DNA of 64,000 nt from a virus (lineage: Duplodnaviria; Heunggongvirae; Uroviricota; Caudoviricetes). Positions 10,682 to 61,932 of the stretch are shown one piece after another (within the stretch, counting starts at the first letter, position 1; each line of letters begins with the position of its first letter). The notes beneath the pieces are model-generated. The model ran no database searches, had not been told where the DNA came from, and saw nothing but the letters and a program-made list of their open reading frames with translations. A program made the translations under genes and the position numbers. Where the stretch lies: the IMG/VR virus record IMGVR_UViG_2654587728_000014, positions 1-64,000 of that record, one strand, 5' to 3'.

Positions 10682-10845
<164 letters not shown>

Positions 10846-36301: not shown

Positions 36302-38992
36302 ATGTCGGGACAGTTTTCAGTCGGCGTTGTTATCGGCGGGATGATTGGTAGCACATTCCGTTCTGCAATGAGCGGTACCCGCCGTGCGCTTGATTCCCTG
36401 AGCGATACCTCACGCCGCCTGCAGGAACGTCAGAACGCTTTAACCCGTGCAACAGAACGTTATGGTCAACTGGGTTCTTCCCGGATGCAGCATCTCAACA
36501 GCGAGCTGCTGCGGGTAAGCCGCACCATGGAGCAAATTGAGCGCCAGCAGCGCCGTCTGTCAGCGGCATCCGCTACCAGTGATGCGCTGAAAGCTAACCG
36601 CATGGCGCTGTATGGTCAGGGGATTGAAGCGTATGGCATGGCACAGACTGTTTATCATACGGTTTCCCCTGCCGTTCAGCAGTCCATGTCTTTTCAGGAC
36701 AAAATGATTGATATGTCGATCACCGCAAAATATGACAATAAAACGCGGGATGGACTTGCCGGACAGATAAAAGGCTGGGCGCTTAAATACAATCAGTATC
36801 AGGATGAGCTGCAGGAGGCGGTGGGTTCACTCATCAGCGACAATATTGATAATGTGTCAGATATCGGTTTTCTGATGCCGGATATTGCCCGCGCGGCAAC
36901 GGCAACACGCACGTCTGCTCAGGACTGGGCAAAAGTGGCCGCAGTCTGGCAAAACTCCCTGAAAGGTGCGGCCAGAGATTTTGGTGCCGTTCAGAATATT
37001 ATGGCTTATGCCGGTGACCAGGGGTCATTTGAAATCCCGGATCAGGTCAAGTGGATGCAGTCCCTGGCCCCAATGATGGCGGGTATTGCCAGTGGAAAAG
37101 AGGCTGTTGCTGAAATCGGGGCCAGTCTCCAGATAGCAAAAATCGGTGCAGGTTCCACCGACGAAGCAGCCAATAATTTTAAAAACTTTCTTACCAAAAT
37201 TTTTGCCCGCGATACTCAGAAACAGTTTGCTGATCTGGGTATTGATTTGCAGGGATCTATTGCGAGTTATAAAGCTGCGGGGATCTCTCCGATTGAAGGG
37301 ATGTTGAGTGTTATAGAACGTTACCTCAATGCCAAAAGCCCCGAAGCGCTGGCCGGCTTCAAATCAGCCATGAAAATAAAGAATGATACGGCAAGAGATG
37401 AGGCACTTCAGGCTCTGGCGAAAAACTTTGGTCTGGGCGATATGTTCGCGGATATGCAGGTCATGGCATTTATCCGCCCGATGCTGGCCAACATGGACAG
37501 ATATCGAGAGATCCGTGCCGGTGCTCTCAGGGCTGCGGATAACGATTTGCTTGCCAGTGCTTATGATCAGCGGCTGAAATCTCCCCTTGAAGCCACTAAA
37601 ACACTTATGGTCAGCAGTCGCGATCTGGCAATTACGCTGGGCGATCAATTAGCTCCATCTTTTATTTCTTTGACTCAGGAACTGCTTCCACTCATTCAGG
37701 GGGCAAAACACTGGGTAGCGACTCACCCGCAATTTGTCAGTGGGGCTTTTAAGCTCATCAGTGCGCTCCTTGCGATTAAGATAGCGACTGTTGGTCTCAA
37801 ACTGGGGCTGAATCTCCTTATTTCCCCCTTTGTAAGTGTCTGGAAAAATGCTGTTTTACTTCGGGCCAACTGGCTTCGTCTGTCGCTCGCACTGGGGCAA
37901 GGCGGTAAGCTCCGCTGGCTGGTGACCGGATTTAGCGCCGTCGCCAGAGGAGCCAGAACACTGAGTGGCGTGCTCTCCGGGGGGCTGGTTCGCGGAATTA
38001 TGCTCGCCGGACGTGCTGTTCTCTGGATTGGACGTGCGCTGATGATGAATCCCATCGGTCTCGTTATCACCGCTGTCGCGGCAGCAGCTTACCTTATCTA
38101 CCGCAACTGGGGGGCAGTCAGTGGCTGGTTTAAACAGCGCTGGGCAGACATTCAGGAAGCCTTTAACGGCGGCATTGTGGGAATTGGTAAGTTACTGATT
38201 AACTGGTCGCCGGCAGGCCTGCTCTATAAAGCCTTTGCAGCTGCGCTGAAATATCTTGGTGTTGATCTGCCGGCAAAGTTTACCGACTTCGGTGGCCATC
38301 TTGTCGATGGTCTGATTAACGGTATCAAAAACAAATGGGAGTCGCTCAAATCCAGTGTAACCGGAATGGGTGACAGCATCAGTGGCTGGTTCAGCGAAAA
38401 GCTGGGCATTCATTCGCCGAGCCGCGTGTTTATGGGCTTTGGTGACAATATCGCGCAGGGGGCCGCCATTGGCCTGCAGCGGACCACTCCGCTTGCAGCT
38501 CTGGCCGGGCAGCGAATGGCCAGTGAACTGCTCCCCAGAATGCCCGTGAGCATCCAGGGGCCAGAAATACGGGATAACACTTCAGGTGTTCGCTTCAGTA
38601 TGCCGTTGCCCGATATCAATGGGTTTATGTCGTCTGCTAAAAATGCGATCGGAGCCGTAATCAATAGTTTGTCTTCCATGCCCGCTATTCCGCTCTCCAC
38701 CCGGGCATCGATTTTACCAGGGCAACGTCTGGCAAATGAGATGACACCGGATGTTCCCCGTATCCCCTCGCCTGAAATCCTGGCTGCCGGATATTCAGGC
38801 CGTGGTGCAGCTGCAACCGGCGGTGGAACGTCTGGTGGTATCCAGGTCAGCTTTAATCCTCAGTTTTTCCTCAATGGCAGGGAAACCACAGCGCCTGCAG
38901 GACTGACTGGTGCCCTGAATATGAGTCTGCATGAGCTGGAAAAAATGCTGGAGCGTCTGCTGGCTCAGAAACAACGTAAGGAGTACCGCTGA
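36302..38992 (+). CDS. tape measure protein (Mu-like element)
   Basis: 896 aa, coiled-coil N-terminus and Gly/Ala-rich hydrophobic centre. Confidence 0.85.
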   Translation: MSGQFSVGVVIGGMIGSTFRSAMSGTRRALDSLSDTSRRLQERQNALTRATERYGQLGSSRMQHLNSELLRVSRTMEQIERQQRRLSAASATSDALKANRMALYGQGIEAYGMAQTVYHTVSPAVQQSMSFQDKMIDMSITAKYDNKTRDGLAGQIKGWALKYNQYQDELQEAVGSLISDNIDNVSDIGFLMPDIARAATATRTSAQDWAKVAAVWQNSLKGAARDFGAVQNIMAYAGDQGSFEIPDQVKWMQSLAPMMAGIASGKEAVAEIGASLQIAKIGAGSTDEAANNFKNFLTKIFARDTQKQFADLGIDLQGSIASYKAAGISPIEGMLSVIERYLNAKSPEALAGFKSAMKIKNDTARDEALQALAKNFGLGDMFADMQVMAFIRPMLANMDRYREIRAGALRAADNDLLASAYDQRLKSPLEATKTLMVSSRDLAITLGDQLAPSFISLTQELLPLIQGAKHWVATHPQFVSGAFKLISALLAIKIATVGLKLGLNLLISPFVSVWKNAVLLRANWLRLSLALGQGGKLRWLVTGFSAVARGARTLSGVLSGGLVRGIMLAGRAVLWIGRALMMNPIGLVITAVAAAAYLIYRNWGAVSGWFKQRWADIQEAFNGGIVGIGKLLINWSPAGLLYKAFAAALKYLGVDLPAKFTDFGGHLVDGLINGIKNKWESLKSSVTGMGDSISGWFSEKLGIHSPSRVFMGFGDNIAQGAAIGLQRTTPLAALAGQRMASELLPRMPVSIQGPEIRDNTSGVRFSMPLPDINGFMSSAKNAIGAVINSLSSMPAIPLSTRASILPGQRLANEMTPDVPRIPSPEILAAGYSGRGAAATGGGTSGGIQVSFNPQFFLNGRETTAPAGLTGALNMSLHELEKMLERLLAQKQRKEYR

Positions 38993-43319: not shown

Positions 43320-43890
43320 GCCATTACAACTCCCGCCACCGCTTGAGGGTGATATCAGTCTCAGGACGCTGGGAAGACTGGCAGGACGGCTGGATAACAT
43401 CGACCTGAGCGTACTGATGGTCTTTCTCGTCGATATCGTCGACAGTTCCGCGCTGCCATGGCTGGGCGAGCAGTTCTCACTGTCTGGCGATGGCTGGGAG
43501 CTGGCGGAATCGGACGATGTTCGCCGCATGCTTATAAAAGCAGCCATCGAACTGCACCGGTATAAAGGGACGCCGTGGTCAATCCGGGAAGTTATCCGCC
43601 GTTTTGGCTTTGGTGAAGTGGATCTGATTGAAGGCACAGGTCGTCTCAGTTACGACGGCAATCGCAGCTATAACGGACTGTTTGTTCATGGAGATGCAGC
43701 CGCCTGGGCAGTTTATCGCGTTATTCTGAAACAGCCCATTACTAACGATCAGGCCGCGATGCTGCGTCAGACGCTCGCTGCATTTGCACCGGCCCGCTGC
43801 CATCTGGCCAGCCTGGAGTATCAGTCTGTGGCCATTCGCTATAACAATACCGCCATCCATGATGGCAGTTATAACCACGGGAGCAGTTGA
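43312..43890 (+). CDS. tail protein I family
   Basis: 192 aa before tail-fibre gene. Confidence 0.78.
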   Translation: MTEPLQLPPPLEGDISLRTLGRLAGRLDNIDLSVLMVFLVDIVDSSALPWLGEQFSLSGDGWELAESDDVRRMLIKAAIELHRYKGTPWSIREVIRRFGFGEVDLIEGTGRLSYDGNRSYNGLFVHGDAAAWAVYRVILKQPITNDQAAMLRQTLAAFAPARCHLASLEYQSVAIRYNNTAIHDGSYNHGSS

Positions 43891-45341
43891 TTATGGGAAA
43901 CCTGAATGAAACAGAAAAGTGGGAAGAAAATATCTATCAACTGGAGACATCAGATCCGGTTCTGGGTGGTGCAGACGGGATATCAAATCGAGCCCCCCGG
44001 CAACTGGCAAACAGGACGAAATGGCTGAAGAAAAAAACGGAGGAAGCCGCACAGTCACTGGCTGAACACGTACGTTCCCGTAACCACCCGGACGCGACAC
44101 TGACAGCTAAGGGGTTCACCCAACTGAGCAGTGCCACCAACAGCACCTCTGAAACGCTGGCCGCCACACCAAAGGCCGTCAAGGCTGCATATGACCTGGC
44201 TGCCGGCAAGGCCCCCGTCAGCCATACTCACCCGTGGAGTCAGATAACGGGAGTGCCTGCTGCCTCGCTGACGGCAAAAGGCACCGTACAACTGAGCAGC
44301 GCCACGGACAGTCAATCAGAAACTGAGGCTGCCACGCCGAAGGCGGTCAAGGCTGCATACGACCTTGCAGCCGGCAAGGCGCCCGTCAGCCACACTCACC
44401 CGTGGAGTCAGATAACGGGAGTGCCTGCTGCCTCGCTGACGGCAAAAGGCACCGTACAACTGAGCAGCGCCACGGACAGTCAATCAGAAACTGAGGCTGC
44501 CACGCCGAAGGCGGTCAAGGCTGCATACGACCTTGCAGCCGGCAAGGCGCCCGTCAGCCACACTCACCCGTGGAGTCAGATAACGGGAGTGCCTGCTGCC
44601 TCGCTGACGGCAAAAGGCACCGTACAATTGAGCAGTGCCATCAACAGCACGTCTGAAATACTGGCCGCCACACCGAAAGCGGTCAAGGCTGCATACGATC
44701 TGGCAAACGGAAAACAACCGGCAGATGCCACGCTCACTGCTCTGGCAGGACTTGCCACTGCAGCAGATCGGTTGCCTTATTTTACCGGAGCAGACCGCGC
44801 AGAGCTGGCAACCCTTACAGCTATTGGTCGCGCTATTATCGCTAAGGGCAGTATAAAAGATGTCCTCAATTACCTTGGTTTGGGGGAAGGCTCTGCATTG
44901 CCTGTTGGTGTACCGGTTCCATGGCCCACCGCCACACCGCCAGCAGGCTGGTTACAGTGCAACGGAGCTACGTTCACCAAAGAACAATATCCTGTTCTGG
45001 CCAGAGTCTACCCGACCCTCCGTCTTCCCGATTTGCGCGGTGAGTTTATCCGTGGATGGGACGGTGGTCGCAAGGTTGATACCGGGCGTGCGCTACTTTC
45101 ATTTCAGGAAGGGACTATCGTATCCGGTTTTGATGATAATGATACCGGAGATATCAGTTCGCTCGGCTCTACACAATACGGATTTGGTGACGCTTTAACC
45201 TCTAATCAACTGGGGGTCTTAAATGGCAAAAAGTGGATATTTGATGCATCCTCTAAAGGTGCACAAAGATATGACTGGTGGGCTTATGTATCAGCTCGCC
45301 CCCGCAATATCGCATTTAACTATATCGTGAGGGCGGCGTGA
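43887..45341 (+). CDS. tail fibre protein S of Mu-like element (constant part up to site C, then variable part)
   Basis: 484 aa; tandem shaft repeats; C-terminus LGLGEGSALPVGVPVPWP...NYIVRAA shared with H and the cassette ORFs. Confidence 0.9.
   Translation: MIMGNLNETEKWEENIYQLETSDPVLGGADGISNRAPRQLANRTKWLKKKTEEAAQSLAEHVRSRNHPDATLTAKGFTQLSSATNSTSETLAATPKAVKAAYDLAAGKAPVSHTHPWSQITGVPAASLTAKGTVQLSSATDSQSETEAATPKAVKAAYDLAAGKAPVSHTHPWSQITGVPAASLTAKGTVQLSSATDSQSETEAATPKAVKAAYDLAAGKAPVSHTHPWSQITGVPAASLTAKGTVQLSSAINSTSEILAATPKAVKAAYDLANGKQPADATLTALAGLATAADRLPYFTGADRAELATLTAIGRAIIAKGSIKDVLNYLGLGEGSALPVGVPVPWPTATPPAGWLQCNGATFTKEQYPVLARVYPTLRLPDLRGEFIRGWDGGRKVDTGRALLSFQEGTIVSGFDDNDTGDISSLGSTQYGFGDALTSNQLGVLNGKKWIFDASSKGAQRYDWWAYVSARPRNIAFNYIVRAA
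44099..44700 (+). repeat. tandem 168-bp coding repeats (about 3.5 copies; two perfect copies at 44267-44434 and 44435-44602)
   Basis: exact 168-nt periodicity encoding LTAKGTVQLSSATDSQSETEAATPKAVKAAYDLAAGKAPVSHTHPWSQITGVPAAS. Confidence 0.85.
44865..44891. other. gix-like crossover site C (CTCAATTACCTTGGTTTGGGGGAAGG)
   Basis: consensus core; same orientation as site A; at the constant/variable junction of S. Confidence 0.6.
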
Positions 45342-45347
45342 TACCGT

Positions 45348-45962
45348 TCAGCCGGCAAGCGCCAGTGGCGCTTCCGGCCAGCTGATTTCAGGTGCCTTGC
45401 TGATATCCAGTGCGTTCAGCTCGTCGATATAATCCAGCACGGCGTTCAGTTTTGCCGTTTCTTCTGGTTTCAGACTGCGACCAGCACGCAGTTTGAGGTT
45501 GATAAGATCGACGGACGCCATCGCCTGTTTCACCCGTTGCTGGCGTTGCTGTCTGGCAACCTCCAGTTCTGCGGCTCGCTGCCGTTCAGTATCGGTTACC
45601 CACGCCTCACCGTTCCAGGTATCCCATGGCGTGGCTGGCTGTTTTGTGGTGGTGTCCGCCGGGTAATCACCCGGTTGGGTAATCAGAACGGGGTTACCGT
45701 TCTCCGTGCTGTATACCGTCTCGCCGCGGTGATCAGGCACATGCTCCCACCCGTTCAGCGTGGCAGTCCGGCAAACCACGTAACCCGAAATTGCTTCCGG
45801 CGGTGCATCGGCGCACGAATGTGCCGGAGTACCCACCCCAAGGGCGAGATACTCCACAGAGGATGAGGTGTATTCCCGGGTTTCCTCGTCATAGTGATAT
45901 ACAGTGATATCGCCCGCTACAGTGGCGATACCGTTTTCATCCAGAACTGCAGTGTTACTCAT
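45348..45962 (-). CDS. G: tail fibre assembly protein (P2 G / Mu U family)
   Basis: 204 aa directly downstream of H; stop is 6 bp from the stop of S on the other strand. Confidence 0.85.
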   Translation of the reverse strand: MSNTAVLDENGIATVAGDITVYHYDEETREYTSSSVEYLALGVGTPAHSCADAPPEAISGYVVCRTATLNGWEHVPDHRGETVYSTENGNPVLITQPGDYPADTTTKQPATPWDTWNGEAWVTDTERQRAAELEVARQQRQQRVKQAMASVDLINLKLRAGRSLKPEETAKLNAVLDYIDELNALDISKAPEISWPEAPLALAG

Positions 45963-47611
45963 TAAACTGCCCTCACAATGTAATTAAGTGCAATGCTACG
46001 GGGTCTGACAGTGATACCCTTCGCATACCCGCTTCTGATAGAGGTCAGAATAGTAGCCTGCATACCATTGTCTGACATTGCCACGACAGGATCGCTGAAT
46101 GTTGTCCCGTCCGGCATTTTAAAGCTGCCCTCACGAAGGTCTGTAATGGAATCTTCATTGTTGAATCCCATGCCGACTATCCCCGAGGTTCCCGTAGTGT
46201 CCTGGTTATAATAATCCAGCATTGCTGTTCTTAACAGCGTTGCCCCTTGTGCGGACAGCAACTTACGTCCTGTATCAACTTTGCGCCCGTCGTCCCATCC
46301 ACGGATAAACTCACCGCGTAAATCGGGAAGACGGAGGGTCGGGTAGACTCTGGCCAGAACAGGATATTGTTCTTTTGTAAAGGCGCGCCCGTCGCACTTT
46401 AACCAGCCTGCTGGCGGTGTGGCGGTGGGCCACGGAACAGGCACACCAACGGGTAGCGCCGAGCCTTCTCCTAAACCAAGGTAATCAAGAACTCCCTGAG
46501 TGCTGGTTTTACCAAGAATGGCACGTCCAACACTTGTCAACGCGGTTAACGCGGCACGATCTGCCCCTGTAAAATATGGGAGTTTATCTGCTGATGTAGC
46601 AAGCTCCGCCAGCGCCGTCAGGGTGGCATCCTTCGGTTGCTTACCCGCAAGCGCGTTAGTCATGGTGGTCGCAAAATTCGGGTCATTGCCCAGCGCTGCA
46701 GCCAGTTCGTTCAGCGTGTTCAGTGCATCAGGTGACGAATCTACAAGTGCGGCAATCGCAGCCATAACGAAAGCCGTGCTTGCGATCTGGGCACTATTAG
46801 TCCCCTGTGGCGCTGTTGGTGTTGTTGGCGTTCCGGTCAGTGCCGGGCTGTTTAATGGTGCTTTCTTGTTCGTTTCATCCATTACCGCCTTAACAGCTTT
46901 TGGTGTCGCTGCCAGCGTTTCAGACGTGCTGTTCGTGGCGCTACTGAGCTGAACAATCCCTTTTTGTGTAGTGGTGGCGTTCTGGGCGGTATATTTCCCG
47001 TTAGCCAGGTCATATGCAGCCTTAACCGCTTTCGGTGTTGCGGCCAGTGTTTCTGATTCACTGTTAATTGCACTGCTTAACTGAGTAAAACCTTTTACGG
47101 TCAGCGAGGCGTCCGGGTGACGTCGTGACTGTTCGTGCTCTGATATTTTATCATCCACATATTTGCGGGTTGCCAGAACCACAGACGGGTCGATTTTCAG
47201 CGTGATGGCTTCGGTGTTCGTGACAACCAGAATCATGCGGATAGTCTGGGTGCGTCCACTGCCTTCCTGCAACTGCGGTTTGTACGTTTCCGGGCAGTTT
47301 GCCACCGCAATGAGTGCACCTTCATCATCATAAAGACCAATCTCACGGATCCAGAATCCTCCCTCGTTTTCAGGGATGATTTGCTCCGCAATAATCTGGC
47401 TCTGATTGTTAGGGTCAACACTCAGAAGATTCAGCGGTGCAATGCGTTTCTGGTTAATCAGTTTTGTTTGTGCAGGGTCTGGTGTTGGTAACACACCATT
47501 TGCATCACCAACGGCCATTTGCGTCAGATTCAGCTTACTGCCGAGCATCGTCGCGTTAGCCAGTCGTGCTGCGCCCTGATTAGTCAGAATGGCGTAGTAT
47601 TTCACTGTCAT
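45962..47611 (-). CDS. H: P2-like tail fibre protein
   Basis: 549 aa; N-terminus MTVKYYAILTNQGAARLANA...IAVANCPETYKPQLQEGSGR matches P2 H; C-terminal part after site D matches Mu-type Sv. Confidence 0.9.
   Translation of the reverse strand: MTVKYYAILTNQGAARLANATMLGSKLNLTQMAVGDANGVLPTPDPAQTKLINQKRIAPLNLLSVDPNNQSQIIAEQIIPENEGGFWIREIGLYDDEGALIAVANCPETYKPQLQEGSGRTQTIRMILVVTNTEAITLKIDPSVVLATRKYVDDKISEHEQSRRHPDASLTVKGFTQLSSAINSESETLAATPKAVKAAYDLANGKYTAQNATTTQKGIVQLSSATNSTSETLAATPKAVKAVMDETNKKAPLNSPALTGTPTTPTAPQGTNSAQIASTAFVMAAIAALVDSSPDALNTLNELAAALGNDPNFATTMTNALAGKQPKDATLTALAELATSADKLPYFTGADRAALTALTSVGRAILGKTSTQGVLDYLGLGEGSALPVGVPVPWPTATPPAGWLKCDGRAFTKEQYPVLARVYPTLRLPDLRGEFIRGWDDGRKVDTGRKLLSAQGATLLRTAMLDYYNQDTTGTSGIVGMGFNNEDSITDLREGSFKMPDGTTFSDPVVAMSDNGMQATILTSIRSGYAKGITVRPRSIALNYIVRAV
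46464..46491. other. gix-like crossover site D (CCTTCTCCTAAACCAAGGTAATCAAGAA)
   Basis: very good match to hix/gix consensus; same orientation as site B. Confidence 0.6.
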
Positions 47612-48249
47612 GCGTTTACTCTCAGATTATCAATTAAATGAATGGCCGGGGCAGGGAAATAATCCCCTTCGACAATAATGGACTCCGGGGTGTAGGGATA
47701 AACCGTCAGGGCATCGCCGTGATAGCATCCCGTACCAACGAAAATCTTTCCGTTCACACTCAGGCTGATCGCCAGCCCCGTCAGATGGCGACTTACTGGT
47801 TTTGCATCCGCAATAAGGCGCTCAAGTTCCTGATACATTTCATCGGTGATGCCCTGATCAAGTACTCCGACAACAATGCGAAATGTTCCTGGCTCCTCGT
47901 TGAGTTGCCACCACTCCTTTACTTCAATCAGGTAGCCGAGAGGCTCCACGGCTCTTCGCAGTGCGCTGATGGTCCCTTTGTGTCGGTGTATCAGCCATGC
48001 ATCACGAATTACCTGTCGCTTTGTCTCTTCCGGCCAGTTGCGATCCCAGCGGTCAACGGAAAACGCCCAGGCGAGATAAGGCAGCAGATGCACCGGGCAG
48101 GTGTCCGGCGACCACAGCGTGTTGAGGTCTACCGGAATGTCTGTAATGCGTGTTCCGACGGCTTCGGCACAACGCATGAAATTGCTGGCTGATGGTGGTA
48201 ACAGTGAATTACTCATTGCGTCCACCTTCGCTGATGGTGAATGACTCAC
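47608..48249 (-). CDS. I: P2-like tail protein gpI
   Basis: 213 aa; LLPYLAWAFSVDRWD and ERLIADAKPVSRHL blocks as in P2 I. Confidence 0.88.
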   Translation of the reverse strand: MSHSPSAKVDAMSNSLLPPSASNFMRCAEAVGTRITDIPVDLNTLWSPDTCPVHLLPYLAWAFSVDRWDRNWPEETKRQVIRDAWLIHRHKGTISALRRAVEPLGYLIEVKEWWQLNEEPGTFRIVVGVLDQGITDEMYQELERLIADAKPVSRHLTGLAISLSVNGKIFVGTGCYHGDALTVYPYTPESIIVEGDYFPAPAIHLIDNLRVNA

Positions 48250-49105
48250 AGCGCGCCGCCTGTATGTCGCTGATGGTCATATTCTGTGTGGGTTCGATTA
48301 TCTCCACGCGTTGCACACCGTGCACATGCAGTGCGGCAGCAATGGCGGACAACGCCACGTCCTGACCGATAAGCCCCTGCTCAGCCAGCCACTTCCTGAA
48401 CGACGATTCAGCCGCGGCCAGAATAGGTTCGGATTCCGGGCCGGGGTAAAAGTACAGTTTTGCATTCAGCCGCCATGTCACGATTCTGGCGCTCTGTACG
48501 GTCAGGCGGTCGGCCACCGGGCGGGTATCCTCTGCATTCAGAACGGCGCGAACGGTATTAAGCAACGCCTCCGTTGCTGTGCCGTCGCCTTCAGTGGACA
48601 GGATGGAAACCGTCACATTTGCCGGAGACGGACTGATAGCCCGCGCATCACGCACCAGACCGCTGGCGCTGCGGGCAAAATACTCGTATGCACCTGACGG
48701 GCCAGCAACACTCAGGCCATCGTACGCCCGCTGTGCCCGCAGTCTCAGCGAGGTGTCACTTTCCATCACTGCGTCGGTGGTATCCGTTGCCGGAGTGATG
48801 GTCAGGCGCTTTGTGTTCATATTGCCCGCGAGGTTGTCCAGGTCTGTCCCGGCGCTGTGGCTTAACATGCAGGCGTGTGCCCCCTCATTGACCCGCTGGC
48901 GTAACAGCATTTCACGAAACGCTGTTGTCTGGGCGATAACGTTCAGGGGTTCCGATTCCAGCTCCAGCGCGGCGGAGACGGCTTCACGCTGTTCGGCGGG
49001 ATAAGCCGCAATCATCATGGCCTTTGTGTCAGCCAGAATTGCCTCAAAGTCAGGCTCCGCGATGATGGCGGGTTCCGGTAACTGGGAAAGGTCAACGGCG
49101 GGCAT
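48209..49105 (-). CDS. J: P2-like baseplate assembly protein gpJ
   Basis: 298 aa; synteny. Confidence 0.88.
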   Translation of the reverse strand: MPAVDLSQLPEPAIIAEPDFEAILADTKAMMIAAYPAEQREAVSAALELESEPLNVIAQTTAFREMLLRQRVNEGAHACMLSHSAGTDLDNLAGNMNTKRLTITPATDTTDAVMESDTSLRLRAQRAYDGLSVAGPSGAYEYFARSASGLVRDARAISPSPANVTVSILSTEGDGTATEALLNTVRAVLNAEDTRPVADRLTVQSARIVTWRLNAKLYFYPGPESEPILAAAESSFRKWLAEQGLIGQDVALSAIAAALHVHGVQRVEIIEPTQNMTISDIQAARCESFTISEGGRNE

Positions 49106-49108
49106 GAT

Positions 49109-49459
49109 TTACTCCTTCAGCGTGATGGTTAACTCAACATTCTGCATGGTCTGCATGACAGTGCCCGACAGCGTCACCCCGGCGCGGCCTCCCGCTTTCC
49201 AGACAACGTCGATGGCGTCCAGGGCAATGCGGGGTTCCCATCGTGTCAGCGCAATCACGGCAGCACTCATGCATTGCAGACGAGTTGTGTTATTCATGGG
49301 TTCGTCAATCAAATCAGGCACAAGGCTGCCATATTCCCGTCGCATAACCCGGCTTGCCAGCGGGGTGATCAGGATGTCCCTGACTGACTGTTTCAGGTGC
49401 TCCATATCGTTCAGGTTTCCCGTCCCGTCCGGATTCATTCCTGTGTAGCGGGTTGTCAC
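49109..49459 (-). CDS. W: P2-like baseplate protein gpW
   Basis: 116 aa; synteny. Confidence 0.85.
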   Translation of the reverse strand: MTTRYTGMNPDGTGNLNDMEHLKQSVRDILITPLASRVMRREYGSLVPDLIDEPMNNTTRLQCMSAAVIALTRWEPRIALDAIDVVWKAGGRAGVTLSGTVMQTMQNVELTITLKE

Positions 49460-50037
49460 TGCGGGCCTCCTGTCGAATCGCTGCCACCTTTAACGCCACC
49501 GTGCTTATGCGTATGCACTGTGATGCCGTTTGAGGTGAAATCGCCGCCGCTGTGCGTGATATTGCCGCTCATCTTTCCCCCTTTTGTGACGTCAAGCGTC
49601 GCTGTTCTCAGAAGGTCTGTGCATTCCACGACGGGCGTATCCAGTGTCACGCTGACGGATGCCTGCAGGGTGGCTGTTTTCATGCCGCTGGCGCTCAGTG
49701 CGCCTGCGTCCGTGTCGTAGCGGAACACCGCGCCATCCGGCGCGCTGATCACGATTTCTTTCAGGCTTTTGCCGGGGGCCGGACTGGCATCACTCCACAG
49801 GCTGCCAATTATCATGGCGGTTTCCGGGTTGCCGCCAATGCAGGCAATTACCACCTGTTCGCCTGGTGATGGCGGCAGCCACACATTGAAGGCTCCCGCG
49901 CGCGTGGTGTTCCAGCGCAGCCAGCCTGTTTCCAGTTCGCCGCTGCGAACGCGCACGCACCAGGATTCCTCATCAACTTCAGAGATGATCCCGGTACGGA
50001 TGATGTTGCTCAGCAGTCGCATGAGTTCTGCGCTCAC
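49456..50037 (-). CDS. V: P2-like baseplate spike gpV
   Basis: 193 aa; synteny. Confidence 0.85.
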   Translation of the reverse strand: MSAELMRLLSNIIRTGIISEVDEESWCVRVRSGELETGWLRWNTTRAGAFNVWLPPSPGEQVVIACIGGNPETAMIIGSLWSDASPAPGKSLKEIVISAPDGAVFRYDTDAGALSASGMKTATLQASVSVTLDTPVVECTDLLRTATLDVTKGGKMSGNITHSGGDFTSNGITVHTHKHGGVKGGSDSTGGPQ

Positions 50038-50678
50038 CGTACAGCCTCCGCAATCCGGCCCAGCACCGTGTTATAAATCAGGCGCTCATCTGCCTGGCTG
50101 ATACCCAGCAGCTCACGTACCGGGTAATCGGTGAAAATGCCCGGCGCAACCTGATCGCGCTCACCGAACTGATGAACGCGTGCAATACGTGCGGCCACGC
50201 CGCTGTAACCCACCGTCACACCGGAAGCATCTGCACGGGCTTTCAGGTAGCGGGCGGTGCGCAGTTTTACGAACATGGGGACGCGCTTTGTGCTGTCCTG
50301 GTTGATGCGCCGGGTGCGTATTTCCAGAAAACGGTCGATGTCATCCCGGTAAAACGTGCGGATATTGTTTTTATCCTCATCCCACCCGGTAATGGTTCGC
50401 CCGTATTTCCCCGTGTCGTGATGCCAGTTTTTCAGCGTGCGTGCTTCGTTATTCCAGATAAAGCGAATGCGCTCCTGTATCCGGGTTACGCGGCGTCTGC
50501 GTGGTGTCCATGCGGTCCCGTCCGGCGCTTTCTGTGACCGGATGCGCGCCTGCTGGGCGCGGCGTAAATCCTGTGCCAGCTTTCTGGCGATGTTATTGAT
50601 GGCCTGCTGATTCAGGCTGTCGCGGATGGCCTCAAAGGTTTCATCCACACGGGTGAATGCCTTATCCATCGCTTTCAC
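50034..50678 (-). CDS. S: P2-like tail completion protein gpS
   Basis: 214 aa; synteny. Confidence 0.8.
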   Translation of the reverse strand: MKAMDKAFTRVDETFEAIRDSLNQQAINNIARKLAQDLRRAQQARIRSQKAPDGTAWTPRRRRVTRIQERIRFIWNNEARTLKNWHHDTGKYGRTITGWDEDKNNIRTFYRDDIDRFLEIRTRRINQDSTKRVPMFVKLRTARYLKARADASGVTVGYSGVAARIARVHQFGERDQVAPGIFTDYPVRELLGISQADERLIYNTVLGRIAEAVR

Positions 50679-51129
50679 CCCACGTCACATCCTGGAATAT
50701 ATGCGACCAGTCGCCTTCGGAAGATGGCAGACGGGGTTTTGGCTCCGGCAGGTGCTCTGCCTGCGGTGTCCCCTGACTGCTGCGCGTAATGCGAACGCGT
50801 TCCCGCAGGGGGAGCGTAAACAGGAGATCGGCGCTGTCATCGTCATTGATAACGGCGGAGAATTTGATGTCCTGATTACGCTCCGGATTGAGCAACAACT
50901 GTGGCTGATTTTCGGATAACCACGCCAGTAGCGGCAGCGTGAGGTCGTCCAGCTCCCCGGCGTAATCCATGACAAACATCACCATCTGATAGCGGTAAAC
51001 AAACGAGGGCGTTTCTCCGGTCGTTTCAATGTTGCCGCTCTCCACGAAAATGGTGAATTTTTCCGGGTTGGCCTGACACCATCGGCATGAACGGGTCATG
51101 GCTTCACGCAGGGAATCAGTTTTCAGCAT
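50662..51129 (-). CDS. R: P2-like tail completion protein gpR
   Basis: 155 aa MLKTDSLREAM... resembles P2 R. Confidence 0.82.
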   Translation of the reverse strand: MLKTDSLREAMTRSCRWCQANPEKFTIFVESGNIETTGETPSFVYRYQMVMFVMDYAGELDDLTLPLLAWLSENQPQLLLNPERNQDIKFSAVINDDDSADLLFTLPLRERVRITRSSQGTPQAEHLPEPKPRLPSSEGDWSHIFQDVTWGESDG

Positions 51130-51436
51130 GGTTGTTGTCCTCGTTGTTCAGTCGTTGCAGTCTGCGCTGTTCCAGTAATTCAATGGCCCGTTTATCCGCG
51201 TTACAGGTTTCCAGTGCATCCAGAAGGCGGTCGCCCCATATACCGAGATTTCCCCATGTGGGAGTGTCAGGGAAGGGGGGAGGCGTTACCGGTATGGTCA
51301 GCGTCTGCGGTATAAGCCGGACTGACGGCGCTGGCCGTGGCGCGTTCTGCGTGCCTGCGCAACCTGTCAGTAAAACGAGCATCAGACAAAGCGTGGGCGC
51401 ATTCATCTTTTGCAATATCGTTGCGTAGCTGTTCAC
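51116..51436 (-). CDS. lysC: o-spanin lipoprotein (LysC/Rz1 type), overlapping lysB
   Basis: 106 aa; signal with LLTGC lipobox, proline-rich. Confidence 0.6.
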   Translation of the reverse strand: MNSYATILQKMNAPTLCLMLVLLTGCAGTQNAPRPAPSVRLIPQTLTIPVTPPPFPDTPTWGNLGIWGDRLLDALETCNADKRAIELLEQRRLQRLNNEDNNHAEN

Positions 51437-51674
51437 GTCTGGCTTCTCCGTCCTGATTGCGTTGCTGATTTTCCACGCGGAGTTGCGCCAGCACCTGCTG
51501 CATATCCTGTACCCCGGTGCTGATGATATTCAGGGTGTCGACGGTACTTTTCAGGGTGCTGGCCTGCGCTTCGTTTCTGGCGTTCTCCCGGCCCAGCGAC
51601 CACGACAGACGTATGGATGTTCCCCATGCGGCAATCAGAAGGAAAGCGACACCCAGCGTGGGCCAGAGCTTCAT
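51267..51674 (-). CDS. lysB: i-spanin (LysB/Rz type)
   Basis: about 136 aa from MKLWPTLGVAFLLIAAWG (TM) then coiled coil; ORF track 51267..51818. Confidence 0.65.
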   Translation of the reverse strand: MKLWPTLGVAFLLIAAWGTSIRLSWSLGRENARNEAQASTLKSTVDTLNIISTGVQDMQQVLAQLRVENQQRNQDGEARREQLRNDIAKDECAHALSDARFTDRLRRHAERATASAVSPAYTADADHTGNASPLP

Positions 51675-52063
51675 GCCGGATAGGCTCCGTGTGGTAACTG
51701 AAAATGCGGTCCGTCTTTCAGGGTCTTCCAGTCGCCGCCCCATTCCACCGGAATATTCAGTTCCCGGCTGGCCTGTCTGAATGCTGCTGCGATTTTTTCG
51801 TACAGCGACCATTCCCATGACACCTGGCTGCCGATATAAGCCACAACATCCACGGCATGCCCCGTAAGGTGGCGGCTGTTCATGGTCTGGCTCTTACCCG
51901 TGGCCACCAGTTGCTTCTGGCGGTAACGGCTGCGCAACCCTTCGGTGATACCAAAATCCACTTCCGAGATTTCCAGTGCCCGTCGGGTCACTTTCACCAG
52001 ATCAGGATTTACGCCCTGCAAATTCTTTTCGCTCCGGCTGCTGAATTTAAATGTGTTGCTCAT
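51671..52063 (-). CDS. endolysin, peptidase M15-like (putative L-Ala-D-Glu peptidase)
   Basis: 130 aa with SRHLTGHAVDV metal-binding-like motif; replaces the lysozyme K of P2. Confidence 0.65.
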   Translation of the reverse strand: MSNTFKFSSRSEKNLQGVNPDLVKVTRRALEISEVDFGITEGLRSRYRQKQLVATGKSQTMNSRHLTGHAVDVVAYIGSQVSWEWSLYEKIAAAFRQASRELNIPVEWGGDWKTLKDGPHFQLPHGAYPA

Positions 52064-52383
52064 TCGTCCTTCTCCTTCACCCTGCGATTAAAGGCCGCAA
52101 TAACCTTGTCGCGTGCTTTCTCTGCCCCCATAAAACCGATTGATGCGCCGATAAACGTCACGGCATCTTCAGGAAAACCGAAGAAGCGCAACGACCCGGC
52201 CACGGCCATGGCAAGAACGCCGCACGCCAGCGATCCCGTTACGGTCTGAACCAGTGTTCGTCCGTCATAAAGACTCATCAGCGCGGAAATGCTGACCGCC
52301 GCGCCTACTGCATACACCGTTGGCAGGTGGTCAAAGAGCCATGCAATAACCTGCTCTGTGATCCCTGTTTGAATGGTGCTCAC
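52060..52383 (-). CDS. holin (putative)
   Basis: about 107 aa from GTG after GGGGGGAG RBS; hydrophobic helices; ORF track 52060..52602 over-extended. Confidence 0.55.
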   Translation of the reverse strand: MSTIQTGITEQVIAWLFDHLPTVYAVGAAVSISALMSLYDGRTLVQTVTGSLACGVLAMAVAGSLRFFGFPEDAVTFIGASIGFMGAEKARDKVIAAFNRRVKEKDE

Positions 52384-52385
52384 TG

Positions 52386-52586
52386 CTACTCCCCCCACAA
52401 CGGAATCATTTCTCGTTTCTTCTTCTCCGGCTCCGGCATCTCCACTTCCTGCCCGGCGTCCAGAAATACCTGCTGACAGAGTCCGGGGTTGGCATCCAGC
52501 ACCTTTTCGGTGACGCCCTGCGTCGTGCCGTAGTACCGGAAACAGAGCGAATCCACGGTGTCGCCTTCCAGTGCCTTTACTTTCAT
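52386..52586 (-). CDS. X: P2-like tail protein gpX
   Basis: MKVKALEGDTVDSLCFRYYG... LysM-like, as P2 X. Confidence 0.8.
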   Translation of the reverse strand: MKVKALEGDTVDSLCFRYYGTTQGVTEKVLDANPGLCQQVFLDAGQEVEMPEPEKKKREMIPLWGE

Positions 52587-53089
52587 CAGCACAACTCCGC
52601 AAAGATTCGCGGACGGCACAGAATGTCAGAGATGGCCCAGCTCACATCACGCCACAAATCCGATGTCTGTATATCCAGTGCGTCCGCCCGGCGGTCGCCC
52701 TTGTCCGTTGTGTCCGCATCGCGGTAACGCTCCAGAATCAGGGCGCGTGTGGCGGTGTAAACCGCATTGCGCCAGTGCCAGAGATTGACACTTTCTCCGT
52801 TAATTACGGGTGCCGGAACATCGGCCAGCGTCTGATGGCCAGCCGCCTGCTGTTCCTGCTGCCATGCTTCCAGCTCGCGGGTAACATGTGCCACAGCCCC
52901 GGTGGCGGTATGCAGCAGACGGGAGGTGGTCACACGGCCCGGCAGTCGTACCGCCAGACGCAGCTCACGCAGCACAATATCCGGCCAGAATGCACCCGCT
53001 GAAATACGGGTATCACCATCATCGGTATCGGTGATGTCGTCCTCTGCGGGGCCGGGGTTGGTTCTGGCAACCATACTCATGGGGTTCAC
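52586..53089 (-). CDS. L: P2-like head completion protein gpL
   Basis: 167 aa; synteny. Confidence 0.78.
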   Translation of the reverse strand: MNPMSMVARTNPGPAEDDITDTDDGDTRISAGAFWPDIVLRELRLAVRLPGRVTTSRLLHTATGAVAHVTRELEAWQQEQQAAGHQTLADVPAPVINGESVNLWHWRNAVYTATRALILERYRDADTTDKGDRRADALDIQTSDLWRDVSWAISDILCRPRIFAELC

Positions 53090-53182
53090 TCCTGAAAAAA
53101 ATCGGGCGGTGGGTGCGCGGTGTAAACGGTCACGGAGTCAAACCGGAACACCGCGCACGCCGCCCGCTGACGGGGTCAGTCG

Positions 53183-53983
53183 TTAACCGCGCTTCGCCTT
53201 CTGCGTCGCGGTGGTTTTTCGTGTTGCAGGCTTCCGCGTTGTCTTTTTACTTTTGCTGCTTTCGTCCTGCGCCTGCTGTGCGCTGGCGTCTTCTGGTTCG
53301 GCTGCGGAATCGGCTTTTTTCAGGGCGCGGGAAAGGGTTGCAATCTCGCGTTTCACACCTGCATTCGGGTTCAGGTGCATTGCTTCGCGCAGCAGCTTCA
53401 GTGACAGGGCCATGCTGTCCGCATCACTCAGGCCACGACGGGCAAAGGCGCACGCCTTGCATAATTTGGCGCGCACTTCGTCCGGCATGTCCTGGTCGGT
53501 GACAATCTCCCGGAGGGTATCCAGTGGTTCGATAAAGGCGGACAAATCCGCGTCGGCATCCGTCCCGGCCTGCGTCAGTACCGGGTTGCAGATTTCTTCG
53601 GTCAGCACTGTGGCAGCAGTACGGCCAAAGTTATCCGGCATAATGAGGTTATGACGGACCACATACGCACCAATACGCAACGCCAGCGGAAGATCGCCGC
53701 AGTCAATCGCCCACACCATCAGCGTGGCAATCACTTCATCCTGCTGCCCGCCGTCAGCCTCCAGCGTTCCCTCAATCCAGCCGGAAAAGTCCGGCAACAA
53801 CTCTTTTTTGATGGCGGCTTTCGCGCTTCTGGCCTGTACGCCCTTAAGCCGGGCCTGTGCCAGACGCAGACGATACAGCACCTCTTCATGCGCGGTACGC
53901 GCGGCGTGGTCCACGCCTTCGTTCGCCCGGCCTGCGCGCTGTGCCATCACGTTCTGCCAGTGTTGCTGTGCAGGAGTAATCAT
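53183..53983 (-). CDS. M: P2-like terminase small (endonuclease) subunit gpM
   Basis: 266 aa; synteny between N and L. Confidence 0.78.
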   Translation of the reverse strand: MITPAQQHWQNVMAQRAGRANEGVDHAARTAHEEVLYRLRLAQARLKGVQARSAKAAIKKELLPDFSGWIEGTLEADGGQQDEVIATLMVWAIDCGDLPLALRIGAYVVRHNLIMPDNFGRTAATVLTEEICNPVLTQAGTDADADLSAFIEPLDTLREIVTDQDMPDEVRAKLCKACAFARRGLSDADSMALSLKLLREAMHLNPNAGVKREIATLSRALKKADSAAEPEDASAQQAQDESSKSKKTTRKPATRKTTATQKAKRG

Positions 53984-54028
53984 TTTTTCTCTCCGTTACA
54001 GGCGGGCATGATGCCCGCTGTGAGTTGA

Positions 54029-55081
54029 TTAGCTGTCGGCGAACTTCAGGCCAGTGACCATCGCGCACTTGCCATAGTCTTCAACGACATAAGCGTCATT
54101 GATGGACTGGTAGGTGGCGATGCGGTTGTATTCCGGTTCGTCTTTCATCAGACGACGCATTGAACCTTTCTGCCAGTAAATCGACAGGTTGTTGAACGAG
54201 GTGATCAGCATCGTTGCATCCGGGAAGAACGGCGCAAGGAACACACCCAGCCCGCCAATGGTGCGCGATGACAGGATGAGCTGTCCGGCGAGTAATTCCG
54301 CATTGGGATTCTGGCCGCTGATGCTGTTCAGCACGGGCAGACGCAGCGAGTTAAACAGGTTGCGCCCCATAATCACCACGAGGTCGTCAGCTTCCTTGTG
54401 CCATTCATCCAGCAGGGATGAGCGTGCGTCCTGAACCAGTGCATCAGCGTTCGCATACTCACCCGCGTGCGCCACGGTGTTGTCCATGTTGCGGGAGGTC
54501 AGCGTCACGTCATTCATTACGCGCGCGCTGGCATTGGTTCTGATGTGCTCCAGCCACCCCACGTTAACGTCCTGAAGCAGCTTGTTGGTGCTGAAGTTGG
54601 ATTTTTCCGCGTGTGACGTGCCGTTAAAGCCGATCATGATGCGGTCAAGCGCCACCTGTCGGGCAATCTGTGCGCTGATGCGGGTCTGGAAGTCATTGTG
54701 CGCCGCCCAGGCATCAAGCTGCGGATACGAAATAAACGTGTCGTAGTTCACCTGCTCACACTGGTACTGACGGGACTTCAGGTCGACAGCGTTAATCGGG
54801 TTGCGGCGATCTGTGCCGTCATAACTGGTATTTGTGCGCGCAATCGGCCCGGTGGTGTCCATGAGGACTTTTTCGCCTTTCTGGTCGGTCACACCGATCA
54901 CGTTAATTTTTTTTGTAAGTTCGGTGCTATCCTTTGAGGCGTTTTCAAAACGCTGCTGCACCGAGGGTTCCACGGTAAATCGCGATACCAGCCCAGAAAC
55001 CGGGATATTGTTAATCGACGCCTGTCGCGTCATGTAGCAGCCCAGCTTGTTACGGGCATTATCTGACATCACCAGATTCAT
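54029..55081 (-). CDS. N: P2-like major capsid protein gpN
   Basis: 350 aa; FTVEPSV and VVEDY blocks as in P2 N. Confidence 0.9.
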   Translation of the reverse strand: MNLVMSDNARNKLGCYMTRQASINNIPVSGLVSRFTVEPSVQQRFENASKDSTELTKKINVIGVTDQKGEKVLMDTTGPIARTNTSYDGTDRRNPINAVDLKSRQYQCEQVNYDTFISYPQLDAWAAHNDFQTRISAQIARQVALDRIMIGFNGTSHAEKSNFSTNKLLQDVNVGWLEHIRTNASARVMNDVTLTSRNMDNTVAHAGEYANADALVQDARSSLLDEWHKEADDLVVIMGRNLFNSLRLPVLNSISGQNPNAELLAGQLILSSRTIGGLGVFLAPFFPDATMLITSFNNLSIYWQKGSMRRLMKDEPEYNRIATYQSINDAYVVEDYGKCAMVTGLKFADS

Positions 55082-55104
55082 AAAAAATTTGCTCCTTTGT
55101 CTTA

Positions 55105-55974
55105 TCAGAAGTCAGCCAGCTGGTCGGAGGCTGCGCCCGTTGCGGTGAACCGGTTCTGCGGATCGCCGTCCTGCGTGCGCAGCTTTTCCTTCAGTGCTGT
55201 CAGCTCTGTGGTCAGCGAAGTGATTTTCTGGCTGTCCTGCTGATGGCGGGTTTCCAGTGCATTAAAGCGGTCGATAATATCGGCCTGTGACGTTGCGACA
55301 CCTTCCACCGCTTCCTGAATACGGGAGAAACTGGCGTCATCCGCTTTGCGGCCACGGCCAATAATCCCCATAACGCGGTTAAACCACTGGGTGCCTTCTT
55401 CCTGACGTTGTTCGGTGAGTTCGATAAGTTCTGACTCCATAGCGGCGGTGAACATCGCCACGTCTCCCTGCTGACAGTTGAATGTCATCAGTTGCATACG
55501 TTGTTGTGCCGCAAAGGCCAGACGTTCCGTGCCCAGGCTGGCGGGGGTGTCGGTCATTGCCAGCCCGCGCAGGTAAGGGCCTCCCGTGATGGTTGACTGT
55601 GGTTCCAGCTCAATACTGGAGTAAATTTTTTTACCATCGTTAAGCAGGGACATCATGCGAGCGGTCGGCTCAATTTCGGCATACAGTGCCGTGCGGCCTG
55701 CCAGCGGGCCATCGGTTATGTCTTCGGTGCTCAACCCCACAACATCGCCCATAGCGGAAAACTCGCTACCGGGGAGTGGTGACAGGATGTGCTCAATATT
55801 CACACGTGCACCATAAACGGACGGGTTATAACTGGTGGCGGCAGCTTTCAGCATGTCGCCGTTGATTTCGCGCCCGTCTGCCGTCACACCGGAGACAGCC
55901 ACGCGAAACTTTTTGCGGGATGTCTTTTTTTCATTAGTCATAGTTTTTGCCCCTCTGACTGGTTCTTCAGTCAT
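55105..55974 (-). CDS. O: P2-like capsid scaffold protein gpO
   Basis: 289 aa; divergent from P-Q. Confidence 0.85.
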   Translation of the reverse strand: MTEEPVRGAKTMTNEKKTSRKKFRVAVSGVTADGREINGDMLKAAATSYNPSVYGARVNIEHILSPLPGSEFSAMGDVVGLSTEDITDGPLAGRTALYAEIEPTARMMSLLNDGKKIYSSIELEPQSTITGGPYLRGLAMTDTPASLGTERLAFAAQQRMQLMTFNCQQGDVAMFTAAMESELIELTEQRQEEGTQWFNRVMGIIGRGRKADDASFSRIQEAVEGVATSQADIIDRFNALETRHQQDSQKITSLTTELTALKEKLRTQDGDPQNRFTATGAASDQLADF

Positions 55975-56095
55975 GATGGCAAAGCGTAACAGGCTGATAC
56001 AAAGGGCTTTTGTTGTAAGAAAACAGTCAGAACAGGGGGTTAAGGAGAACGGTTTCGCGCGCGGGTAATCTTCCTGTAATTACTCAGGGGGAGCA

Positions 56096-57847: not shown

Positions 57848-58893
57848 TGAGCAGAAAAAATAAAAAAGTGCGCATGAGTTCACGCATTGATCTCGCTGAT
57901 GCGCTCAGGAAAGAATCATCGCTCAGTGCATTCACATTTGATGGTCCTTATCGCCTGACCGGGCATGACCTGCTGGACAATATGTACTGTGCTGATAACG
58001 GGCGGTGGTATGAAACCCCGGTGGACTGGTACGGTCTGGCAAGAGCAGCCCGGCAAACGTCCTGGCATCAGTCTGCGCTTTACTTTAAGCGCAATGTATT
58101 ACTCGGTTGCTACATCCCGCACCCGCTGCTTTCCCGGCAGGATTTCTCGGCGCTGGCGCTGGACTGGTTTGTGTTCGGTAACGCATTCCTTGAGCTTCGA
58201 AGCAATATGCTCGGCGAACCGCTTAAATTACGGCACGCCCTGGCGAAATACATGCGACGCGGAAGCGATCTTGAATCATGGTGGTATGTGCAGGATGGCA
58301 AGGACGCGTTTCAGTTTCGTCCTGGCAAAGTGTGCCACCTGATGAATCCGGATATTAACCAGGAAATCTACGGCATGCCGGAATATCTTGGCGCATTACT
58401 CTCGGCCAGCCTTTCTCATTCGGCGGACATGTTCAGAAAACTGTACTACGACAACGGATCCCACGCCGGGTGCATCATCTACATCGGTGCAGCGCAGGTA
58501 AACCGCGAAAGCATGGACTCCCTGAAAGAAACGCTACAGGGGGCACGTGGTGGTGGTGCGTTTAAAAACGTGCTCATTCATGCGCCCAACGGGGGCAAAG
58601 AGGGGGTGCAAATTTTGCCGTTCCAGCAGATCACCGCAAAAGATGAATTCATGAATGTTAAGGCGGCATCCCGTGATGATGTGCTGGCTGCGCACCGCGT
58701 TCCGCCGCAACTGATGGGGGCGATGCCGGGCGAAAAAAGTGCGTTTGGCGATGTGGAGAAGGCAGCGCGGGTTTACGCAATTAACGAGCTGATGCCCGTC
58801 ATGGAGGCTATGAAGCACATCAATGACTGGCTTGGCGAAGAGGTGATCCGTTTTAACTCTTATGCTCTTCTTGATGAAAAAACAGCCCCGTGA
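57847..58893 (+). CDS. Q: P2-like portal protein gpQ
   Basis: 348 aa; ATGA-coupled to P. Confidence 0.9.
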   Translation: MSRKNKKVRMSSRIDLADALRKESSLSAFTFDGPYRLTGHDLLDNMYCADNGRWYETPVDWYGLARAARQTSWHQSALYFKRNVLLGCYIPHPLLSRQDFSALALDWFVFGNAFLELRSNMLGEPLKLRHALAKYMRRGSDLESWWYVQDGKDAFQFRPGKVCHLMNPDINQEIYGMPEYLGALLSASLSHSADMFRKLYYDNGSHAGCIIYIGAAQVNRESMDSLKETLQGARGGGAFKNVLIHAPNGGKEGVQILPFQQITAKDEFMNVKAASRDDVLAAHRVPPQLMGAMPGEKSAFGDVEKAARVYAINELMPVMEAMKHINDWLGEEVIRFNSYALLDEKTAP

Positions 58894-58910
58894 TGGGGCT
58901 GTCCTTTTTA
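58883..58910. terminator. bidirectional hairpin terminator between Q and the first cargo gene
   Basis: CAGCCCCG-TGA-TGGGGCTG with T-runs on both strands. Confidence 0.6.
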
Positions 58911-59954: not shown

Positions 59955-59986
59955 TGCAAACAAAAAAAGCGCCTTATCGGCGCTTC
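59955..59986 (-). terminator. rho-independent terminator of 89-aa cargo gene
   Basis: on minus strand AAGCGCCGATAAGGCGCTT followed by TTTTTTTGTTTG. Confidence 0.6.
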
Positions 59987-59993
59987 AAAAGTA

Positions 59994-60939: not shown

Positions 60940-60943
60940 TGGT

Positions 60944-61903: not shown

Positions 61904-61932
61904 GTCGGTTTTCCTTATGTTGATTAATTAAT

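Follow-up and report, generated by a model that had tools for sequence, protein, structure and literature searches.

Why should two tail-fibre genes of two different prophages face each other across a single invertible segment that holds a single chaperone gene? The question is raised by a 64,000-nucleotide stretch of the virus record IMGVR_UViG_2654587728_000014 (Caudoviricetes; positions 1 to 64,000, hereafter the window), in which fibre gene S of a BcepMu-like transposable prophage and fibre gene H of a P2-like prophage converge at 43887-47611. A first-pass annotation had read the segment between them as shared by the two phages, with inversion exchanging receptor-binding domains between their fibres. 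The anatomy that it described stands, but the service to two phages is not supported. Very probably, the two prophages, which are unrelated and lie in a single E. coli chromosome, recombined at the crossover sites of their invertases; what we see would be an intermediate stage in the exchange of cassettes and no switch built for sharing.

Convergent fibre genes and the segment between them

Gene S (43887-45341, plus strand) encodes 484 amino acids from a TTG start, the source record calling it from the ATG at 43893 (482 amino acids), and carries four Pfam Phage_fiber_2 matches (E 1e-73) and a Collar domain. Gene H (45962-47611, minus strand; 549 amino acids) has the P2-type N-terminal domain Phage_tail_fib (PF12571; E 1e-62), followed by Phage_fiber_2 and Collar. 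A Tail_P2_I gene and baseplate genes lie upstream of S and of H, in each case on the strand of the fibre gene. Open reading frame (ORF) positions, Pfam domains and prophage matches agree that the two convergent genes come from different phages, as had been proposed. Between them lies one tail-fibre assembly (chaperone) gene, TAP, at 45348-45962 (minus strand; 204 amino acids; Caudo_TAP, E 6e-27), which is co-oriented with H and whose stop is separated from that of S by 6 bp (45342-47, between stops at 45341 and 45348). In the present isomer, only H is followed by an assembly gene on the strand of the fibre gene; both this gene order and the 6-bp spacing bear out the first-pass annotation.

Each fibre gene divides into a constant and a variable part at a 26-bp crossover site. 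The constant part of S (Sc, 43887-44876, plus strand) is 95-96% identical to Sc of a sequence type 131 (ST131) prophage. It meets, at site C (44863-44888, minus strand; TTCCCCCAAACCAAGGTAATTGAGGA, that is, TTCCCCCAAACC-AA-GGTAATTGAGGA), the variable C-terminal, receptor-binding part now joined to it (Sv, 44877-45341, plus strand), which was assigned from the inversion model and the comparison of contexts. Site C is a native Sc/Sv junction, both of its sides being identical to ST131 site y1. The constant part of H (Hc, 46479-47611, minus strand) carries PF12571 and is 99% identical to Hc of the 160-11H1 prophage. The variable part now joined to this P2-type Hc (Hv', 45962-46477, minus strand) comes from the BcepMu-like prophage: 230 nt of it match the variable side of ST131 site y2 at 100% identity, and the window at 44289-46482 is 99% identical to the ST131 BcepMu-like prophage (L002). 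Site D (46466-46491, plus strand; TTCTCCTAAACCAAGGTAATCAAGAA, that is, TTCTCCTAAACC-AA-GGTAATCAAGAA) is a hybrid of a Mu-side variable half-site and the P2 Hc half-site.

Sites C and D are mutually inverted, their core dinucleotides are separated by 1601 bp, and the segment between them comprises both variable C-termini and one assembly gene, in agreement with the 1.6-kb segment first described. The predicted swap of receptor-binding domains between the fibres is also borne out at the level of ORFs. Inversion of C-D in silico yields intact ORFs for Sc-Hv' (501 amino acids) and Hc-Sv (532 amino acids), with both frames kept. The flipped junctions would be diagnosed by the k-mers GATGTCCTCAATTACCTTGGTTTAGGAGAAGGCTCGGCG (Sc/Hv') and GGAGTTCTTGATTACCTTGGTTTGGGGGAAGGCTCTGCATTG (Hc/Sv). 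The motif TTCYCCYAAACCAASGT has five matches in the window against none in 100 shuffles. Furthermore, S and H are joined by an inverted repeat of 392 nt, 77% identical, with sites C and D at its centre.

The shaft of S contains 168-nt tandem repeats (44100-44713), each coding one Phage_fiber_2 unit. Sc of the window is one such unit longer than the copies in ST131 and in strain 4/0 (989 versus 821 nt), and Hc of strain 4/0 is likewise one unit longer than Hc of DA33135. Given these differences in unit number, the length of the fibre shaft varies through gain and loss of units.

Native fibre regions, reciprocal product and half-site mosaic

The native BcepMu-like layout, as found in the ST131 copy L002, is Sc - y1 - [Sv -> <- TAP <- Hv'] - y2 - [<- frag2] - y3 - invertase - right end - aroA. 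The native P2-like layout, found in the DA33135 prophage (L003), is Hc - x1 - [Hv -> TAP -> <- tip] - x2 - [<- tip] - x3 - invertase - U, T and so on. In both parental prophages the invertase gene adjoins the invertible segment. One chaperone gene between two convergent tips, with the 6-bp spacing, is native in both families; the layout is not a product of the fusion.

The reciprocal product of the convergent locus lies at 4865-8666 in the order <- inv_Mu, alpha, [var a -> TAP -> <- TAP <- var c], beta, [<- frag2], gamma, inv_P2 ->, then <- U. It is a hybrid invertible region between divergent intact invertase genes, with four variable tips, two assembly genes and no constant fibre part. The invertase gene of the BcepMu-like prophage (4943-5515, minus strand; 190 amino acids; Resolvase and HTH_7) now lies away from its fibre gene, and the window at 4865-5795 matches the invertase region and right end of L002. 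Site alpha (5570-5595, minus strand) leads into a P2-derived, G-segment-like cassette (5587-7546) that consists of tip var a (5587-6048, plus strand), a first assembly gene (6048-6641, plus strand), a second assembly gene (6613-7056, minus strand) and var c (7058-7546, minus strand), a tip without homology to the others. Beyond site beta (7547-7572, plus strand) lies frag2 (7566-7998, minus strand), the third variable tip of the BcepMu-like prophage, a tip that matches the variable side of ST131 y3 at 100% identity. Site gamma (7986-8011, plus strand) and the invertase gene of the P2-like prophage (8067-8666, plus strand; 199 amino acids; Resolvase and HTH_7) complete the region. Since a constant fibre part is absent there, none of these tips should be expressible as a fibre at present. 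This two-invertase region is absent from all 5426 complete E. coli genomes that made up our comparison set.

Both invertases are full length, with PF00239 and PF02796 and the catalytic-serine motif GYIRVSTNDQ in each, and are 86% identical to each other. The invertase match to PDB 4M6F/3UJ3 ('DNA-invertase'; E 3e-91; about three quarters identical by eye in the alignment) is to a protein that we take to be Mu Gin. The features of the Din family (Gin/Cin/Pin/Hin) are seen here in the enzyme (resolvase domain, catalytic serine and helix-turn-helix), in the inverted pair of 26-bp sites and in the in-frame position of the sites at the constant/variable boundary. In such sites, as in the gix/cix/hix consensus used for the comparison, a core of 2 bp is flanked by two imperfect 12-bp half-sites in inverted orientation. 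Adjacency of invertase gene and segment, a further family feature, is not seen: both genes are 36-40 kb from the C-D segment, the nearest at 36 kb.

For each site, 40 nt plus the half-site upstream and 230 nt downstream were compared with the reference prophages. Site C combines upstream context Mu y1 with its unchanged tip Sv. At D, upstream context P2 x1 (98% identical to 160-11H1) is joined to tip Mu Hv' (100%); at alpha, Mu y3 (100%) to the P2-type tip var a; at beta, Mu y2 (100%) to var c; and at gamma, the invertase-proximal P2 context x_last (100%) to Mu frag2 (100%). The mosaic is exact at all five sites, every switch from phage to phage falling within the 26-bp site, and the five upstream contexts (Mu y1, y2 and y3; P2 x1 and x_last) and the five tips are each used once only. 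The five junctions thus form a closed, mutually consistent set of reciprocal products. At beta, var c and Hv' have only the 15-bp TTGGTTTAGGAGAAG in common, so the crossover was limited to ~15 bp around the core. Such a pattern is the signature of conservative site-specific recombination and not of RecA, and the hybrid half-sites prove past exchange.

Homologous inversions between prophages are well known in E. coli, and the inverted repeat that spans the sites (392 nt, 77% identical) includes perfect runs of up to 56 nt. Both facts would favour the alternative that RecA, recombining the similar fibre genes, fused the prophages and that no invertase was involved. However, the exchanged upstream contexts are without homology, Hc coding sequence being 21-37% identical to the non-coding or 3'-end sequence of y2 and y3. 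The partner tip at beta is unrelated past the half-site, and in each of the four hybrid junctions the switch lies precisely at the core. In strain 4/0, the corresponding exchange linked Hc to the non-coding, invertase-proximal context y3. No chimeric tip from a crossover in the conserved tip region was seen, the tip at D being 100% Hv' from the first post-core base. We regard fusion by RecA as highly improbable, and site-specific exchange by the invertases as the reading to be preferred.

Transposition into T, the parent prophages and strain 4/0

The way in which the prophages became nested is recorded in the P2-like tape-measure gene T. Its N-terminal part (3535-4864, plus strand) ends at the transposon right end, with a copy of GTGACG at 4859-4864, and its C-terminal part (9194-10683, minus strand) abuts the transposon left end, with an inverted copy at 10678-10683. 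Window positions 1-4864 and 7804-10683 match one intact T region of the P2-like prophage L004, in which the two matches overlap at 12784-12789; GTGACG is single in intact T and is now present on both flanks in inverted orientation. The right end begins TGATGCG at 4865 and the left end TGATTAG at 10684, and both end sequences match prophage ends found in other genomes. Because the halves of T flank both ends with GTGACG copies in inverted orientation, the BcepMu-like phage is shown to have transposed into T, the inversion having come afterwards. The T/transposon junction was not found among the 5426 genomes.

A DDE transposase, varied insertion sites and the 6-bp target duplication GTGACG together identify the S-side prophage as transposable (Mu/BcepMu-like). 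The transposase (15865-17634) carries an rve domain and is 100% identical to that of Escherichia phage PhiKM (Bcepmuvirus) and 68% identical to that of phiE255/BcepMu. Copies of the prophage that are 99-100% identical lie beside many different host genes in other E. coli. Its lifestyle is Mu-like, but it belongs to the BcepMu type and has a P2-type tail. Its body, from the left end to the gpI-like gene (10684-43886, plus strand), is colinear with the prophage of strain 4/0. The partial PhiKM record (PQ738613) was of no use as a free-phage reference for the fibre, being collapsed at the invertible region; its fibre gene stops at 960 nt and early genes follow (L010, 19287-20544). The invertible region and invertase of PhiKM seem to have been lost or collapsed during assembly.

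On the P2-like side, the tail and baseplate genes V-W-J-I-H-G are colinear and are accompanied by a P2-type capsid and terminase module. At 46266-64000, the window matches P2-family prophages with 96-98% identity, and the annotation of these prophages includes P2 capsid, gpM, portal and replication endonuclease.

An independent case is found in strain 4/0, a urinary-tract isolate with a finished genome. Its P2-like prophage is at serS/dmsA and its BcepMu-like prophage at aroA/ycaL, which are the usual places. The convergent point there reads Sc - [frag2 ->] - [Hv' -> TAP -> <- Sv] - <- Hc, and ~44 kb away lies <- inv_P2 - [tips] - inv_Mu -> - aroA. The 44-kb inversion (NZ_CP023849 ~957.8-1001.9 kb; L009, L008) flips dmsABC, ycaC, ycaD, pflAB, focA, ycaO, ycaP, serC and aroA; strain 4/1-1 (L013) and ST131 keep the un-inverted dmsA-aroA order. 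Besides the joining of Hc with y3 noted above, the P2-type H of 4/0 bears the Sv tip. Since the transposable prophage there is not in T, the 4/0 inversion is a separate, independent event. Two other readings of 4/0 were ruled out. It is not the opposite isomer of the same structure, as the transposable prophage is at ycaL/aroA and not in T; nor was its Hc converted by Sc, as it is a native DA33135-type Hc at 97% identity.

No genome among the 5426 contained the convergent region at a coverage of at least 80%, the best being 4/0 at 75%. S in the state of the window is contiguous in 389 of them and in-silico flipped S in 230, the best matches of either state having 100% query coverage and ~97% identity. 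Since both states are common, C-type and y2-type sites recombine in nature. Swapped variants, on which the first-pass annotation had made its proposal depend, do therefore occur in related strains, both as flipped S and as the 4/0 H with its Sv tip.

Some further observations concern the parent prophages themselves. The BcepMu-like tape-measure gene (36302-38992) encodes 896 amino acids in the window against 983 in ST131 and 4/0, and its blast pieces overlap by ~290 nt; this suggests that a repeat unit has been lost, which would predict a shorter tail. In canonical P2, FI-FII-E-T-U, H-G and D all run in the same direction. The present P2-like lineage has its FI-FII-E-T-U tail operon in the opposite orientation to H-G and D (L003 9290-14875; L004 10805-15001; window 1268-4864), with an invertase gene at one boundary of the inverted operon. 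The P2-like prophage also has ParM-like and partition/stability genes by the replication endonuclease gene (window 60944-61903; L008 21858-23136), which is unusual in an integrated P2-type phage.

Origin of the fusion, its present state and its meaning

How, then, did the convergent locus arise? In a first step, shown by the junctions in T, the BcepMu-like phage (ends at 10684 and 4865) inserted into T of a resident P2-like prophage. In a second step, shown by the junctions of the sites, x1 (the Hc/Hv boundary) recombined with y2 (the second of the three BcepMu-like sites), inverting ~40 kb and creating D; Sc and Hc thereby became convergent around the BcepMu-like cassette [Sv -> <- TAP <- Hv']. 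In a third step, which is likewise shown, a second inversion between x_last and y3 reshuffled the reciprocal product at 4865-8666 between the two invertase genes. Catalysis would be by serine invertases of the Gin/Cin/Pin type, and two inversions are the minimal path. The mechanism itself is conventional.

In its present form, the locus is of doubtful use to two phages. The P2-like prophage is without intact T whatever the isomer. The transposable prophage is split, with both ends facing the same way and with its invertase and right end detached, and in the present isomer it should not replicate as a unit. Because both prophages appear to be disabled in this isomer, we infer that the locus is a by-product and not a working two-phage switch. 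A functional switch, in which the segment is kept so that two co-resident phages alternate two tips and one chaperone, would be in line with the intact and inverted sites, with the survival of both frames upon inversion and with the two intact invertase genes; the order Hc-Hv'-TAP also equals the natural P2-like order (L003). Against it stand the splitting of T by the transposable prophage, the detachment of that prophage's right end and invertase with both ends facing the same way, and the occurrence of the arrangement in this strain and one independent case only among the 5426 genomes; moreover, nothing points to selection for the arrangement. A functional switch is for these reasons improbable. 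The idea of one segment serving two phages thus gives way to that of a junction of a ~40-kb inversion between the prophages' own invertible regions, with both elements split, the invertases 36-40 kb off and a layout native to both families.

Several points weigh against our preferred account of recombination at the invertase sites. The order and number of inversions are those of the minimal path only, and flipping of the five sites in this strain at present is a prediction from sequence. Recombinational enhancers sit inside the 5' part of Gin/Hin-type invertase genes; the putative enhancers would thus be 36-40 kb from C and D, and C x D flipping may be inefficient. Perfect runs of 56, 33 and 28 nt occur in the conserved 5' part of the tips, which could permit occasional RecA-mediated inversion with a similar outcome at some junctions. 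In addition, the source is a draft contig (GCA_001267345.1, JHRJ01000008.1). An exact-protein look-up of S, H and the T-fusion ORF returned the source contig and one 6.2-kb Logan contig only, in the same state. The latter, from the sole other sample (run SRR21136863), is 100% identical to window 1-5706, including the alpha-var a junction; it has the same alpha state and breaks in the repeat, being uninformative on C/D.

A draft whole-genome shotgun source and a second contig that ends inside the repeat are also what one would expect if a short-read assembler had linked the prophages through the repeated site region. Such a misassembly is unlikely, and to our mind extremely improbable. The true and alternative junctions share only ~15-20 bp at the site. 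Since D has Hv'-specific bases 3-6 bp from the core, the junction has to be spanned by reads. Furthermore, the five junctions are mutually consistent as reciprocal products, and the finished genome of 4/0 has the same kind of structure.

Several rearrangements should still be open to the locus. C x D should be able to flip, swapping Sv and Hv', with the chaperone, between S and H in frame. A single flip of ~37 kb, whether gamma x C or beta x C, would return both prophages to colinearity with their tip cassettes exchanged: the BcepMu-like prophage, contiguous once more, would carry var a, two TAPs, var c and frag2, and the P2-like prophage would be left with the Sv/TAP/Hv' cassette. It is conceivable, though rather doubtful, that the five sites and two invertases form a live network that reversibly splits and reassembles the transposable prophage and also moves tip and chaperone cassettes between families without homologous recombination.

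How far is such a locus foreseen by known systems? It resembles Mu G/Gin, P1 C/Cin and e14 P/Pin in its serine invertase, in its 26-bp sites with a central AA/TT core at the constant/variable boundary, in the position of tips and chaperone genes inside the segment and in the in-frame fusion obtained either way. In contrast, those systems have one constant part and one adjacent invertase per phage, whereas here the constant part of a second phage replaces the invertase at the far site. Min of plasmid p15B is a multiple-inversion system. Another is the three-repeat P2-like prophage of enteropathogenic E. coli (Goldberg 2014, PMC4272514). In both, as at our locus, there are three or more crossover sites, several C-termini to choose from and more tips than chaperone genes. 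In both, however, the sites are clustered in one element, while here five sites are divided between two elements and into two clusters ~37 kb apart, with the result that the greater part of a prophage is inverted by some of the flips.

Cross-talk between elements is also documented. PinQ of Qin inverts the P segment of e14 (PMC12529663), and Fin of Fels-2 is cited as acting on hix (Kutsukake 2006, cited in PMC4272514). As at our locus, the invertase of one element acts on the sites of another, the sites being interchangeable. Those cases concern action in trans on a site pair within one element, whereas the sites that recombined here belong to different prophages. A proposal by Sandmeier (1994, as cited by De Paepe 2014, PMC3945230) has invertases driving the horizontal exchange of tail-fibre genes between unrelated phages. 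The precise exchange of tip cassettes between unrelated phages at crossover sites, which the proposal as cited requires, is what this locus displays. Mosaic sequences were the basis of that proposal, whereas here one chromosome still contains both reciprocal products, and does so in two independent strains. A study of ST131 wound isolates (bioRxiv 10.1101/2022.05.07.487787) describes, in the passages covered, tail-fibre inversions and a 'translocation' in P88-like, BP-4795-like and phiE255-like prophages, with reversible inversions confirmed by polymerase chain reaction in single isolates. The prophage families and the regions homologous to GpH and Mup49-S are those of the present locus. The same passages deal with inversions within prophages and one unexplained translocation, and contain no large two-prophage inversion or half-site logic. 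In the literature searched, we found no description of two prophages that had recombined with one another at such sites and kept both products.

Among the parts of temperate phages, tail-fibre tips move horizontally the most. The window, like 4/0 as a second independent pair, retains both reciprocal products, so that the proposal of exchange by invertases can be put to the test in a living strain. Where co-resident prophages carry compatible invertase sites, stretches of tens of kilobases (40-44 kb here) can be inverted, core genes included. Such inversions give rise to structural variation in another way than the usual homologous inversions between prophages or rRNA operons, and bear on the reading of assemblies of ST131-type genomes, where these two prophages lie 16 kb apart. 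Should the network be live, the replication ability of the transposable prophage would be phase variable. If the phenomenon is general, recombination between elements by invertases, which can also turn round parts of the core chromosome such as aroA-dmsA in strain 4/0, would be a main route to the long-known mosaicism of tail-fibre genes.

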